A stretch of DNA of 64,000 nucleotides from assembly GCA_963695435.1 (NCBI GenBank), contig OY968788.1, forward strand, positions 349,456-413,455, given 5' to 3'. Under the pieces are notes generated by a model that saw only the letters and a program-made list of their open reading frames with translations, ran no database searches and was not told the origin of the DNA. Every line of letters begins with the position of its first letter. Within the stretch, counting starts at the first letter, position 1. This DNA is from an uncultured bacterium (GTDB lineage: Bacteria; Patescibacteriota; Kazan-3B-28). Both the position numbers and the translations under genes were made by a program. Of the stretch, positions 3,767 through 60,200 are shown piece after piece.

Positions 3767-4837
3767 TTAGATTGGCTTGGGGGTACGGCGGGCTGTTCGC
3801 CAACTATCGTAAATTCTAGCGAATATCCAAACTACTGTAATAGCAACCAAGTTGATTGTGAAATTGATCCACAAATTATTGCTTGGGTACGGAAGAAGTA
3901 AATTCAGGCTTACCAAAACAAAACTTTGGGAAATATAAGTAGCAAGGGAATTCCGTCCGGCCGGGAGCAAAAGCCAGCCCACAATTTTTGTGAAAACAGG
4001 CTCTAGGCTGCGCACTAGCAAATACAATCCCGCAAACCAAATCAGCGCGACAACCAAATGACCTGGAGCCAGCGTCCATTTATCAAACCATTGAGTAAGC
4101 CATCCTCCTTCGTAGCCGTAAAAATGTTTCACCCACAAATTAGTAACTAAAATAATAAATGCTCCTGCAACGACTGACCAACGAAGCCACCGTTGAGCAA
4201 GCTGGGTGAGACCTCCCCAGAGTTTTTCCCAATCGCTGAAATAATATCCGCCGGTTAGACCAATAAAGAACAATACCTGCCACGCCAAAAAGGGATTGTG
4301 CCCTCGCATCAGCCAAATAGTAAGGGAAGTGGCGATTACTAGCCAAGCCTGCTTTTTTGACATCAGCCAAAGTGCCAACGGCGCAAAAATCATATACATC
4401 GTGTAGTAAGGTAGGAAGTCAGTCCAGCCGTAGCTGTATTGAAAAGTAAGAGACCGCCAAAGAAGCTGAAGAAATGGCAGATGTTCGGCTCCCGCCTTAA
4501 TGCCGGGCTGATTGGGCAGCCAAATAGCTAACGCCGTAAATAGTAGAGTAAGCCCCACAGACCAGCCGTAGAGCACCAACGCGCGAAGCCAGAGGCGCTT
4601 CCAAGCCAACATAAAGTTATTTGCTCGCACTTCCCTCCCCCGCAAAAATCCGACTAAAATTCCTGATTCAATAAAAAATCCATCAGCGGCTGAAGCCCAA
4701 AGCAAACCCTTGCCGGTAAACACCTCAAAAAGCGCCGGGAAGCGGTAAATGTGGTCAATCAGAATAACCCAAAGAAAGTATCCGCGCAGTAAATCTAGAG
4801 TAATAATGCGGCGACTGGGAGATGAAGTCATAAACAT
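3767..4837 (-). CDS. polytopic membrane acyltransferase-3/OpgC-like family protein
   Basis: 356 aa, ~10 TM helices, N-terminal LDLLRG motif typical of acyltransferase_3/DUF1624-like proteins. Confidence 0.5.
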   Translation of the reverse strand: MFMTSSPSRRIITLDLLRGYFLWVILIDHIYRFPALFEVFTGKGLLWASAADGFFIESGILVGFLRGREVRANNFMLAWKRLWLRALVLYGWSVGLTLLFTALAIWLPNQPGIKAGAEHLPFLQLLWRSLTFQYSYGWTDFLPYYTMYMIFAPLALWLMSKKQAWLVIATSLTIWLMRGHNPFLAWQVLFFIGLTGGYYFSDWEKLWGGLTQLAQRWLRWSVVAGAFIILVTNLWVKHFYGYEGGWLTQWFDKWTLAPGHLVVALIWFAGLYLLVRSLEPVFTKIVGWLLLPAGRNSLATYISQSFVLVSLNLLLPYPSNNLWINFTINLVAITVVWIFARIYDSWRTARRTPKPI

Positions 4838-4912: not shown

Positions 4913-5965
4913 TTATTTGTCGAAAAGAGCAAGTTGGGGAGGTCTTCCGCGGGGTCCACGAATTTGTAGTTTTCCGAGCCGATAGAGATTGGCCGATGGA
5001 ACCAACCAGCGACAAGTCCCTTCAATCGGACACTGACTACAGGTGTTGAGATAGTTCTCAATGTTCTGCTTTGTCCAACTAATTTCTTTGGGGACTACTG
5101 TAATCACCCGAGAATCTTCATCCCTAGGGACGATACTCTTGTTACCCGGGTGGCATCGACAGGCGATGCTCGACAAGAACCATGTCGCATCACAGAGTTC
5201 GGTTGGATCAACCTTCCGCTCTCGACAGTAGCGTTGAGTCAGTTCCCTAGCAGCAGCGAACATCTTCTCCGTTCGGAAGTTATAGTTGTCCGGTGCGTTA
5301 GACGCGGTGATCAACCCATTTGCGATAATAATCCTCATCGCATGAAAGTCGATCGGAATCGGCATCGATATAGGAGCTACCAACTTTGCCCTCACGAGAT
5401 AGAAGGCTAACATACTTACCATCTTCTCTCGGAACCCACGGAAACCATGGGGATATTCTGGGTTGAATTCCCCTGCTGGTTGACAGATGAGACGCTTGCA
5501 GAGCGTTTCATAGTCAGCATCAGCAAAGAGTGCTCTCGTGTCACCACCCCAGAACTGATGCAGTTTGGTGAAGTTGTCGACCCATTGTCGGCAAGACTCC
5601 TCAATGTGGTTTAGCCGCCGCTTCAAGAGTTCTTCAGCCAGCAACGCCTTGGTTCGGCTAGGCTGGCGAGCGACCAACTCGGGATCGAAGAGCCTTGGCT
5701 GGTCGTCGTGAAGCTTTACCAAACTGTTAAACGCAGTGTAGCTTTGAATGCTACCCTTCATATAACAGCAAACTGCTAACGAGAAATTAGATTCTGCTTT
5801 CCCCCCAATTTTGAGAGTATGGGGCAGAGTATTACTGTCATAGACGGCAGTAGCGATACTGTAGGGATACGCGGGGCGGCGAAGAGCCGCGATTAGCGCA
5901 TCAAAGACTTGGTATGCCCGTTTCCAGTGGGTAACCAACTTAACTTCCCCGTTGCCGTTAGCCAC
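4913..5965 (-). CDS. hypothetical protein, elevated GC (~50%), C-terminal C-x2-C-x5-C cysteine cluster
   Basis: 353 aa ORF; AGGAGG sits 8 nt before second GTG (track start GTG abuts SD), so start probably 5965; composition differs from neighbours. Confidence 0.5.
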   Translation of the reverse strand: MANGNGEVKLVTHWKRAYQVFDALIAALRRPAYPYSIATAVYDSNTLPHTLKIGGKAESNFSLAVCCYMKGSIQSYTAFNSLVKLHDDQPRLFDPELVARQPSRTKALLAEELLKRRLNHIEESCRQWVDNFTKLHQFWGGDTRALFADADYETLCKRLICQPAGEFNPEYPHGFRGFREKMVSMLAFYLVRAKLVAPISMPIPIDFHAMRIIIANGLITASNAPDNYNFRTEKMFAAARELTQRYCRERKVDPTELCDATWFLSSIACRCHPGNKSIVPRDEDSRVITVVPKEISWTKQNIENYLNTCSQCPIEGTCRWLVPSANLYRLGKLQIRGPRGRPPQLALFDK

Positions 5966-9236: not shown

Positions 9237-10054
9237 TGAACTGGCCGATTTTCTGGCAAACCCTAAAAAGCTACTGGCTAACCATCCTCTTCTACTGCGG
9301 TGGCTTGTTCTTGTATAGTATGTTTTTGACATTTATTTTCCCAGTTGCTCGCGACTTGGGAACGAATTACACCGAGATTTTTAACAAAATACCCGAACAA
9401 ATTAAGCAGGCGATGGGTGGAGCAAACTTTTTGACTAACGGGCTGACCTTCGAAGGATTCTTGTCGTTGGAACATCTTAAATTTTTCTGGGTAATCGCTG
9501 TTGCCGCTTTTATTGTTGGGTTTGCTTCGCGGGCAATTGCGGGAGAAGTGGAACAGGGCACAATCGCTCTTCTGTTGTCCCAACCGGTTACCCGCACGCA
9601 AATATTTTTCAGCAAATTCGCTGTTGGAGTAATAGGAATAGTGGCATTGACCGCAGCAACCATCGGAGGGATCCTCTGGCAGGCTCATCGATTGGACATT
9701 GCAGTCGCGCCGATTGAGGGATACTGGTTGTTCCTTAGTGTGGCTATTTTATTTTTTATTAGTATTCTCGCGGTGGCGATGATGTTCTCCACCATGGTGG
9801 CGGAACGGGGGCGAGCTACACTACTGCCGCTTATGTTTGTAATCGTTTCTTTCGCGATAGATTTATTTGCTAAATTGAATGCGGATTGGGAAGACTTGAA
9901 ATGGCTTTCGATATTCCATTATTACGGAACGCCGGATTCGATTATCACTAACGCAAGTATTGATGATCTAAACCTTTGGGTATTTGGCGGGATTATTGTG
10001 GTAACAACTATTATTGGGTTGGTAACTTTCAACCGGCGAGATATCGCCGTGTAG
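9224..10054 (+). CDS. ABC-2 family transporter permease
   Basis: 276 aa, 6 TM, start overlaps ATPase stop. Confidence 0.7.
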   Translation: MVPIMNWPIFWQTLKSYWLTILFYCGGLFLYSMFLTFIFPVARDLGTNYTEIFNKIPEQIKQAMGGANFLTNGLTFEGFLSLEHLKFFWVIAVAAFIVGFASRAIAGEVEQGTIALLLSQPVTRTQIFFSKFAVGVIGIVALTAATIGGILWQAHRLDIAVAPIEGYWLFLSVAILFFISILAVAMMFSTMVAERGRATLLPLMFVIVSFAIDLFAKLNADWEDLKWLSIFHYYGTPDSIITNASIDDLNLWVFGGIIVVTTIIGLVTFNRRDIAV

Positions 10055-29203: not shown

Positions 29204-29255
29204 ATAAATCCTTCTTCTGGTCCCATTAGACGGGACGCGGAAGTAATAAACAGAG

Positions 29256-29317
29256 TCTAGAGAGTAGAGATGAGAGAATAGAGATTGGCTCTACACTCTC
29301 GTCTCTCTTCTCTAGAG
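29256..29317. repeat. TAGAG-unit hairpin repeat copy A (28-nt purine arm, loop ATTGG, 29-nt pyrimidine arm) between rpsJ and rplC
   Basis: TCTAGAGAGTAGAGATGAGAGAATAGAG / CTCTACACTCTCGTCTCTCTTCTCTAGAG imperfect inverted repeat. Confidence 0.6.
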
Positions 29318-44980: not shown

Positions 44981-45057
44981 CTAGAGATTAGAGCATAGAG
45001 TGTAGAGAGTAAGAGCAGAATTTTTGTAATCTCTCTTCTCTCATCTCTATTCTCTGG
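44981..45057. repeat. TAGAG-unit hairpin repeat copy B
   Basis: CTAGAGATTAGAGCATAGAGTGTAGAGAGTAAGAG ... CTCTCTTCTCTCATCTCTATTCTCTGG. Confidence 0.55.
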
Positions 45058-46408: not shown

Positions 46409-46490
46409 CGTCATTCTTCCTCTCAAAATCACAAACACTCGCTTCGCTCCTTGGTTTGTGATTTTGTGTTTGGGTTTTCAATCTCCGTTT
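46409..46490. repeat. Z-element copy 1: AAAATCACAAAC-N17-GTTTGTGATTTT hairpin module upstream of tRNA cluster 1 / downstream of dCMP deaminase
   Basis: ~90% identical over ~55 nt to 47515-47570. Confidence 0.6.
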
Positions 46491-46517
46491 TGTTATTTGT
46501 TATTTGGTTATTGGTTA

Positions 46518-47006
46518 TTACGGTGTAGCCGTTGTGGGGTACTCTTTTACTTTATCATCAAGAATTTCAAATTTAATACCCGCTTCTTCAAATATTCGCC
46601 GACTTTCAGCGCTTGCCTGATAATCCTGCCGTACCACTACCCGTACAATTCCACTGTTGATAATCATCTTGGCACAGGCATAACATGGCGTCATTGTGCA
46701 ATATAATGTACCGCCGTCAATAGAGATGCCAAATCGTGCAGCTTGGCAAATTGCATTTTGTTCGGCATGAGAAGTCCGAACACAATGCTTAGTTATACGA
46801 CCATCTTCATGAACAGTATCCTTGAATTCGTGACCTACTTCATCACAGTGTGGCAATCCTATTGGTGAACCAACATAACCAGTAGAAAGAATCCGTTTAT
46901 CTTTCGTAATAACTGCGCCGCTTTTTCCGCGATCACAAGTAGCACGGTTGGCTACCGCTTCACAAATTTGAAAAAAATATTCATCCCAGCTCAGTCGCTC
47001 GTTCAT
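46518..47006 (-). CDS. dCMP (cytidine/deoxycytidylate) deaminase family, zinc-binding
   Basis: HAEQNAI and PCYACAKMI motifs; start moved to second ATG (AGGAGG 7 nt upstream; perfect TATAAT overlaps first ATG). Confidence 0.75.
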   Translation of the reverse strand: MNERLSWDEYFFQICEAVANRATCDRGKSGAVITKDKRILSTGYVGSPIGLPHCDEVGHEFKDTVHEDGRITKHCVRTSHAEQNAICQAARFGISIDGGTLYCTMTPCYACAKMIINSGIVRVVVRQDYQASAESRRIFEEAGIKFEILDDKVKEYPTTATP

Positions 47007-50959: not shown

Positions 50960-51484
50960 TTGAGTAGACCAACTCCACCACCACGAATCCGCGCTAATCA
51001 CATGATCCGAGCATCTCGGCTATTTGTGATTGACGCAGAGGGGCAGCCTCATGGTGAAATGTCCCTGCAGGACGCAATGAAGTTGGCGGAAGCGTCCGAA
51101 ATGGACTTGGTAGAGGTATCTCCCAATGCCAATCCGCCCGTAGCCAAGATTCTGGATTTGGGCAAATACAAGTACGATCTGACCAAGGCTCAACAGCGTC
51201 AGCGCAAGCACCATAAGGAGGTGGTAGTCAAAGAAGTCCGACTAGGGCCTACTATTGGCGACCACGATTTAGGGGTAAAAATCAAGCAGGCAGAGAAGTT
51301 TTTGGGGCTGGGCTATAAGGTGAAGGCCTCGGTAGTGTTCCGTGGTCGGCAGATGGCCCATATGGAGCTCGGTCATGATGTTTTACAAAAGCTGGTTGAC
51401 AGATTACGGGACAAAGCTAAAATGGAACAAGCTCCTATCCGGCAAGGTCGGAGCATTCATATTGTCATCGCTCCTGTAAAATAG
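50960..51484 (+). CDS. infC: translation initiation factor IF-3
   Basis: IRASRLFVIDAEGQ ... VVFRGRQMAH. Confidence 0.9.
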   Translation: MSRPTPPPRIRANHMIRASRLFVIDAEGQPHGEMSLQDAMKLAEASEMDLVEVSPNANPPVAKILDLGKYKYDLTKAQQRQRKHHKEVVVKEVRLGPTIGDHDLGVKIKQAEKFLGLGYKVKASVVFRGRQMAHMELGHDVLQKLVDRLRDKAKMEQAPIRQGRSIHIVIAPVK

Positions 51485-51575
51485 AGAGTAGAGCGTAGAG
51501 AATAGAGCGTAGGAAGAATTACTTTAGTTTTTGCTCCCTGCCCTCGTCTCTAGTCTCTCATCTCTCATCTCTATC
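51482..51575. repeat. TAGAG-unit hairpin repeat copy C between infC stop and rpmI start
   Basis: TAGAGAGTAGAGCGTAGAGAATAGAGCGTAGG ... CCTCGTCTCTAGTCTCTCATCTCTCATCTCTATC. Confidence 0.55.
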
Positions 51576-51580
51576 TTTCT

Positions 51581-51778: not shown

Positions 51779-51815
51779 TTTGTCATCCTGAGCATAGCGA
51801 AGGATCTATAAAATT

Positions 51816-52163: not shown

Positions 52164-52220
52164 CACTTTGTCATTCTGACTCCGACTGGTCGGGAGAAGA
52201 ATCTAAACTATAAAATTAAA

Positions 52221-59725: not shown

Positions 59726-60168
59726 CTCTTTGCAAGTGTGTAACTACCCTGTACCGACGGTATAGGGAGGAAAGTCCGGACACCATTTGGGATTTGGAAA
59801 GTCGCTAACGGCGACCAGGGGCAACCCTAGGGAAAGTGCCACAGAGACTATACTAGTTCTGCTGTAAAGCAGAATGAAAGGTGAAAAGTTGCGGGATGTG
59901 TTGTGTAAAGAATTAGGCCAAACCTAATGATTTGCGCCTCTTGCCACTCGCAAGGTTCCACCGCGAGGTGGAAATTCTGGTAAACCCTTTCCGGTGCAAG
60001 TTGGACTGGACTGAATATGCTAACAACATAAATTCCAATTGAGTATATTCAGACCCCAACGCTTGAGTTCTGGAGCAATCCAGAACCTAGATAGATGGTT
60101 ACTCTACCCGCGTACATTCGCAAGACTGTACAGGGTGAGACAGAATCCGGCTTATAGCTTGCAAAGAG
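59726..60168 (+). ncRNA. rnpB: RNase P RNA (bacterial type A-like), ~443 nt
   Basis: GGGAGGAAAGTCCGGAC (P4 5' strand), ACAGAATCCGGCTTATAG (P4 3' strand), GGTAAACCC; P1 pairing CTCTTTGCAAG / CTTGCAAAGAG. Confidence 0.85.
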
Positions 60169-60172
60169 TTTT

Positions 60173-60200
60173 AAAAAGACCACATTAGTGGTCTTTTTTG
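60173..60200 (+). terminator. intrinsic terminator AAAAAGACCAC-ATTA-GTGGTCTTTTTT after rnpB
   Basis: perfect stem. Confidence 0.8.

Follow-up and report, generated by a model that had tools for sequence, protein, structure and literature searches.

The stretch of DNA analysed here (the window, 64 kb) comes from a member of the Patescibacteria (CPR), and three of its spacers hold inverted arrays of short repeats. Hairpin A lies between rpsJ and rplC, hairpin B between genes for a DUF218 protein and a LemA protein, and hairpin C between infC and rpmI. An earlier note, made from the letters alone, had located the three elements and quoted the sequence of A; both the locations and the quoted sequence are exact. 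The features are as follows, with the basis of each in brackets.

29256..29316, minus strand: hairpin A, rpsJ-rplC spacer, in an operon on the minus strand (sequence, inverted repeat, fold, Pfam, orthologues)
29316-29289, 29288-29284 and 29283-29256, minus strand: sense 5' arm, loop and 3' arm of A
44981..45057, minus strand: hairpin B, DUF218-LemA spacer (sequence, TRF, fold, Pfam)
44982-45019 and 45030-45055: tandem arrays of B (TRF, period 7)
46487..46521, no strand assigned: solitary period-7 array of TTTGTTA/TTGGTTA units (TRF, lag scan, sequence)
51482..51576, plus strand: hairpin C, infC-rpmI spacer (sequence, TRF, fold, Pfam)
51482-51512 and 51543-51576: tandem arrays of C (TRF, period 7/14)

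Repeat unit, folding and gene context

The three elements have a common architecture: four to five tandem [T/G]AGAGNN units, a loop of between 5 and ~30 nt, and an inverted array of NNCTCT[A/C], one arm being rich in purines and the other in pyrimidines. The unit is thus a heptamer, [T/G]AGAG plus two variable bases, and not the pentamer of the earlier description, in which the diagnostic 7-nt periodicity of the class went unnoticed. TRF reports a period of 7 (also 14) for all six arms, and a lag scan of the window detects six period-7 arrays against none or one for each other period from 4 to 12. The solitary array at 46487-46521 belongs to the same heptanucleotide repeat class as the hairpins, but is built from a different unit and has no inverted partner.

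That A, B and C form one family, as first proposed, is upheld. Allowing up to one mismatch, TAGAGNNTAGAG occurs 16 times in the window and every occurrence is within one of the three elements, an enrichment of ~8-fold relative to shuffled sequence (2.04 +/- 1.54 occurrences, maximum 6); no further TAGAG-type copies are present within the 64 kb. What is common to the copies is the 5-nt core only, the loops and variable positions being unrelated. The elements had been entitled a "second repeat family"; the other family that this implies is probably that of the small hairpins of the form GTCATYCTGA...GAAGRATC, found at ~51783-51810 (rpmI-rplT spacer) and at ~52166-52207 (after rplT).

The self-complementarity claimed for the arms stands up to folding. 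Predicted structures for A-C have energies of -30 to -38 kcal/mol and z scores that range, by copy and strand, from -2.3 to -5.0; just 0-3 of 200 shuffles equalled the native stability. Among the inverted repeats in the window that fall within 150 nt, copy A ranks first: its arms, 29256-29283 and 29289-29316, are each 28 nt long, 82% complementary and separated by a 5-nt loop. It folds at -35.6 kcal/mol on the sense strand and -37.9 on the other (z -4.6 and -5.0). For the two strands of B the scores are -3.0 and -4.2, and for those of C, -2.3 and -4.0.

Pfam assignments place each element between co-directional genes (S10/L3 and DUF218/LemA on the minus strand, IF3/L35 on the plus strand), and the repeats are outside coding sequence, overlapping nothing but the upstream stop codon. 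The S10 stop codon TAG (29323-29321) is paired into the base of stem A, and the first TAGAG unit of C is itself the infC stop codon TAG (51482-51484). B begins 19 nt past the stop codon of DUF218, also TAG, and stops short of the LemA ATG by 21 nt, leaving free the Shine-Dalgarno (SD) sequence AGGAGG that lies between. The rpmI ATG (51581) is just 4 nt beyond the end of the 3' arm of C with no SD in between, and rpmI is without an SD everywhere in this clade (window and relatives). TAG thus terminates each of the three upstream genes, although it accounts for no more than 17 of the 79 stop codons in the window (p roughly 0.01, from three cases). A further property, that every frame of either strand meets a stop codon in the purine arms, was rejected as a general one, being true only of B(+) and C(+). 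Within the 3' end of infC, at 51396-51423, there is a strong sigma-70-like promoter match (TTGACA, 16-nt spacer, TAAAAT; 11/12), which would make hairpin C part of a 5'-UTR for rpmI-rplT.

The location of A and C had prompted a hint of ribosomal-protein autoregulation (L20 feedback at infC-rpmI, and the S10 operon). On this view the stems would be leaders, one bound by L20 and the other, in the S10 operon, by L4 or some other protein. The position of these two copies out of three is the one point in favour of such leaders. Rfam, searched at gathering and at permissive thresholds, returned tRNAs and RNase P, besides sub-threshold matches to models of eukaryotic miRNA precursors (generic long hairpins), and no ribosomal-protein leader; the third copy has DUF218 and LemA as its neighbours; and conservation does not extend to relatives, among which infC and rpmI can be 8 nt apart and rpsJ-rplC can have no hairpin (below). 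We consider this explanation to be hardly credible, and the view that the elements are generic rather than specific to ribosomal proteins is strengthened, given that there is no leader match and that relatives have no element or one made of another unit.

A small hairpin that adjoins A is a better candidate. It occupies 29214-29243 on the minus strand, a short distance ahead of the rplC ATG (29203), and has the form CUUCCG-CG-UCCC-(loop GUCUAAU)-GGGA-CC-AGAAG, its 3' half overlapping the SD region. Across seven relatives it comprises 12 pairs, of which five show compensatory changes; it has no Rfam match. Judged by this conservation, it would be likelier than the heptamer hairpin next to it to act as an rplC or S10-operon leader.

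Intrinsic termination or attenuation within the operons, also raised at the outset, is very improbable. The stem-loops are stable, and at the rpsJ-rplC junction of distant CPR (L138, L149 and L150) a GC-rich hairpin is followed by T-rich sequence; nevertheless, a terminator scan detected no terminator-like site at A-C, where there is no U-tract, and the sites are situated between essential co-transcribed genes. [quoted passage not shown] The RNase P RNA (class A, 59728-60170, terminator at ~60174-60200) is 443 nt long compared to 367 nt for the model and so carries insertions; no heptamer array of the STRR-like kind inserted in this gene in heterocystous cyanobacteria is present inside it.

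Orthologous spacers in relatives

Homologues of IF3 assign the window to the Patescibacteria (CPR). Syntenic contigs from relatives, denoted by L numbers, were recovered through IF3 and L3 homologues. Synteny is conserved, and the spacers orthologous to those of A-C are highly variable: they contain a hairpin with other numbers of units, inverted arrays of a different heptamer, or no element.

infC-rpmI, L125-127: 8 nt only (TAGAGAAAATAATG)
infC-rpmI, L122: inverted arrays built from another heptamer, TAGTGAA / TTCACTA
infC-rpmI, L123: TAGAG hairpin, as one allele in the scaffold
infC-rpmI, L128 (4214-4300; IF3 95% identical in amino acids, infC 85% in nucleotides): period-8 CTAGNNNA array
DUF218-LemA, L125/126: 34 nt, element absent
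DUF218-LemA, L122/123: 190-412 nt, with TAGTATC and GAAATCC heptamers
rpsJ-rplC, L129, L130 and L131: orthologous TAGAG hairpins of differing lengths (z -4.1, -5.6 and -7.1)
rpsJ-rplC, L136/137: GGTTAGC arms on both sides of the rplC leader
rpsJ-rplC, L143: no hairpin

The earlier note had proposed this comparison, and its outcome is divided: TAGAG hairpins recur in L129, L130, L131 and in the L123 allele, and are lacking in L125-127 and L143. The period-8 array of L128 folds no better than its shuffles (z -0.2), which means that a repeat-filled spacer is not always a hairpin; the same contig has a CAAGTNN heptamer array at 4500-4560, in the rpmI-rplT spacer. L122 and L123 are two strains whose flanks agree at 100% of 2484 nt and which yet differ in the number of ACGAAAT units (three versus six) and of TAGTGAA units (two versus five); the variation by whole units is thus established for relatives of the window organism. 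Over 172 kb from relatives we counted 24 arrays of period 7, seven of period 8 and between zero and two of any other period. NAGAG arrays are specific to the clade, with 15 in 185 kb from near relatives versus two in 601 kb from distant CPR. The gain and loss of whole units, together with replacement or absence of the element in close relatives, show that the arrays turn over rapidly and evolve in situ by dynamics of the slipped-strand type.

Two insertions of other kinds were noted in these spacers. In L132 and L133, at about 9850-10000, an inverted-repeat insertion of ~150 nt is positioned right on the start codon of rplC, with the ATG duplicated on both sides (ATGAATCCCGTAGAGAAATTTAGAA ... 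TTCTAAATTCTTCTACGGGATGAAAGGT). In L121/L122 the DUF218-LemA spacer is interrupted by a GTCATTCC...GGGAATGAC element, which is related to the small GTCATYCTGA...GAAGRATC hairpins of the window.

A miniature mobile element, of the MITE or REP/REPIN-like type, that inserts into spacers would account for the presence of one core at three dispersed loci in 64 kb, for the TAGAG-type hairpin that occupies a different spacer (rpmI-rplT) in L122/123, and for a palindromic architecture, with which it is compatible. Against this, the copies are alike in the 5-nt core only and have no defined ends, comparison of the filled sites of the window with the empty sites of L125-127 and L143 revealed no target-site duplication, and orthologous copies vary by whole units and not en bloc. 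No transposase was seen in the vicinity of the elements. We therefore regard a mobile element as quite improbable. The term "REP-like", applied to the elements previously, is apt in a loose sense; it fails in that the copies share a 5-nt core and no element sequence, with no target-site duplication. REP/BIME and MITE palindromes likewise are dispersed, intergenic, found within operons and possibly have roles as mRNA stabilisers, but A-C differ from them in having no conserved element sequence, defined termini or target-site duplication and in having a substructure of repeat units; they are not members of this family.

Arm polarity and strand tests

One genome per species was scanned for four TAGAGNN units, which yielded at least 120 stretches from many phyla. 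Among the matches listed, about a quarter of the arrays for which both flanks were available have an inverted partner. One such case, in a Chloroflexota MAG (L103, 4400-4476), is a TAGAGAG x4 / CTCTAAT hairpin directly upstream of an rplP-like gene that starts MLMPKRVKWRKQMRGR; an unrelated phylum thus also has a TAGAG hairpin in a ribosomal-protein operon. A Bacteroidaceae MAG (L041, ~4938-4963, minus strand) contains a long TTTAGGG/TTTAGAG array identical to the plant-type telomere repeat, which could be a heptamer SSR or else result from the mis-binning of plant DNA in a gut sample.

Across phyla, and whichever strand is used, the purine-rich arm is nearly always 5' of its partner. For TAGAG arrays the purine arm comes first in 22 cases and the pyrimidine arm in two, and for other units in those same loci the figures are 16 and two (both sets among the matches listed); for CPR loci they are 16 and one, some of these being duplicates, and for the near clade seven and zero. 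It had been argued that a purine arm paired with a pyrimidine arm reads the same on both strands and that orientation is hence uninformative. This is mistaken in one respect, the polarity being strong and non-trivial, and helix energy cannot separate the two orientations. A possible cause, avoidance of Rho by keeping the C/U-rich arm from being exposed first, is weakened by five purine-first loci in cyanobacteria, a phylum not known to have Rho.

The arms themselves bear on how the elements arose. Transversion mismatches in the stems number 41, mostly at the two variable positions, which are non-complementary between arms, and TRF shows each arm to have 14-nt duplications of its own. The 3' arm accordingly did not arise by decay from an inverted copy of its partner: the two look like independently expanded arrays of one core in convergent orientation.

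Were the stems selected as RNA, a strand bias could be sought in their mismatches and energies. Transition mismatches show no bias toward the sense strand (14 of G.U type, 11 of A.C type), and the minimum free energy is better for the sense than for the antisense strand in only five of eight hairpins. With neither a G.U bias nor an advantage in sense folding, the data do not support RNA rather than DNA as the selected form.

These results weigh on the possibility that the hairpins are regulatory stems maintained by selection, which would be cut by RNase III, block exonucleases or act in coupling and in this way fix how strongly neighbouring cistrons are expressed relative to one another, with repeat number providing tuning at the level of the population. 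Some features are in keeping with it. In the four orthologous rpsJ-rplC hairpins, pairing is held through changes on both sides at five of the 23 consensus pairs; the stems span from stop to start; and rpmI is without an SD in the clade. A precedent is the hmw 5'-UTR hairpin of Haemophilus influenzae, formed by (ATCTTTC)n, which is cleaved by RNase III and for which expression is inverse to repeat number (PMC12721329). There, too, a heptamer SSR is one arm of a long transcribed hairpin, as A-C would be if transcribed with their operons; however, the hmw repeat arm is the pyrimidine arm and is 5', its partner is a non-repeat G-rich region, the hairpin is in the 5'-UTR of a phase-variable adhesin, and its cleavage by RNase III is experimental, so that the resemblance of A-C is structural only (long imperfect dsRNA). 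A search for an RNase III signature found none in the sequences covered, which were partial genomes, too incomplete for the result to be informative. With hairpins missing or replaced in close relatives and a sense-strand G.U bias absent, we consider maintenance by selection for regulation to be unlikely.

Heptanucleotide repeats and the origin of the elements

The three hairpins are intergenic heptanucleotide simple-sequence repeats (SSRs), a known class, here with a host from the Patescibacteria and TAGAGNN as the unit. They have a 7-nt unit, are intergenic, occupy several loci (three in 64 kb), vary in unit number and occur as convergent pairs that form stem-loops. They are not STRRs in the strict sense of the cyanobacterial STRR1-3, given their host and their unit.

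Heptamer STRR hairpins of cyanobacteria include those between hupS and hupL, for which effects on transcript stability or translational coupling have been proposed (PMC2670836). The likeness extends to 7-bp tandem units, an intergenic or intercistronic location, hairpins between co-transcribed genes and several types of unit per genome; the phylum is different, and the unit of the window has five fixed and two free positions. Xanthomonas genomes contain 70-75 convergent pairs of GGGAATC arrays each, and their conserved spacers vary extensively (Rehm et al. 2015, PMC4692102). These arrays and the GGGGA(T/C)T repeats of Nostoc are, like A-C, heterogeneous intergenic heptamers, often in convergent stem-loop pairs, whose length and sequence vary at the same spacers between related genomes. 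Their units are G-rich and prone to form G-quadruplexes, whereas TAGAG has no G-runs, and G4 formation is hence not applicable. A third counterpart is the TAACTGA family of Beggiatoaceae, cyanobacteria and Bacteroidetes, the repeats of which end just ahead of start codons, ribosomal operons included (MacGregor 2015, PMC4679880). There also, genome-specific heptamers are found at many intergenic loci and often end a few nucleotides before starts, with canonical SDs rare; unlike A-C, which are all inverted pairs, nearly all TAACTGA repeats are direct, with one inverted among 170 sets.

On balance we favour the reading that A-C are STRR-like heptanucleotide SSR elements, each made of two convergent [T/G]AGAGNN arrays, which are tolerated as intercistronic stems and are not conserved regulatory RNA; we would put its probability at roughly two in three. 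The arrays would be transcribed inside operon mRNAs, where they are predicted to fold into imperfect stems of 25-35 bp, in which 5-bp helices are split by small internal loops. Beginning at the stop codon of the upstream gene, each stem would extend nearly as far as the following start codon or its leader and, being self-closing, would add about 60-95 nt to a tight spacer with stop and start still close. Because closure would keep the stop near the start, an insertion could be tolerable even though the spacer can measure 8 nt in relatives. As rpmI has no SD in the clade, its translation is probably dependent on coupling.

A secondary role is conceivable. The stem might present a site for a double-strand RNase or a barrier to exonucleases, altering the processing or stability of the mRNA, and might affect translational coupling in the way proposed for the cyanobacterial hairpins; by analogy, A-C may modulate processing, stability or translational coupling. 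Presence/absence polymorphism in close relatives implies that any function is dispensable; taken with the null strand tests, it speaks for an element that is tolerated and modulatory at most, as opposed to a dedicated regulator.

Slippage by itself fails to account for the dispersed recurrence of one 5-nt core, the non-complementary variable positions or the purine-first polarity. A more speculative proposal, to which we attach little weight, is that the polarity, the genome-specific core and the anchoring at stop codons reflect a directional, sequence-aware process, making the hairpins a tunable layer of intercistronic control in the regulator-poor CPR. Such a process might involve a protein that acts in trans and recognises AGAG at 7-nt intervals, or a repeat expansion dependent on RNase III like that of H. 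influenzae. If such a process were real, heptamer hairpins would be more than passive products of slippage.

The findings extend STRR-like heptanucleotide-repeat hairpins to the Patescibacteria and place them in core translation operons (rpsJ-rplC and infC-rpmI) in which spacers are otherwise tight. For annotation they carry a warning: stems of this kind are not to be taken for ribosomal-protein leaders or terminators. The series of orthologous spacers, with no element, a hairpin of different length or a different unit, constitutes a compact natural data set on the origin and turnover of repeats, and the purine-first polarity that holds across phyla provides a simple rule that must be explained by every model of how they originate or function.
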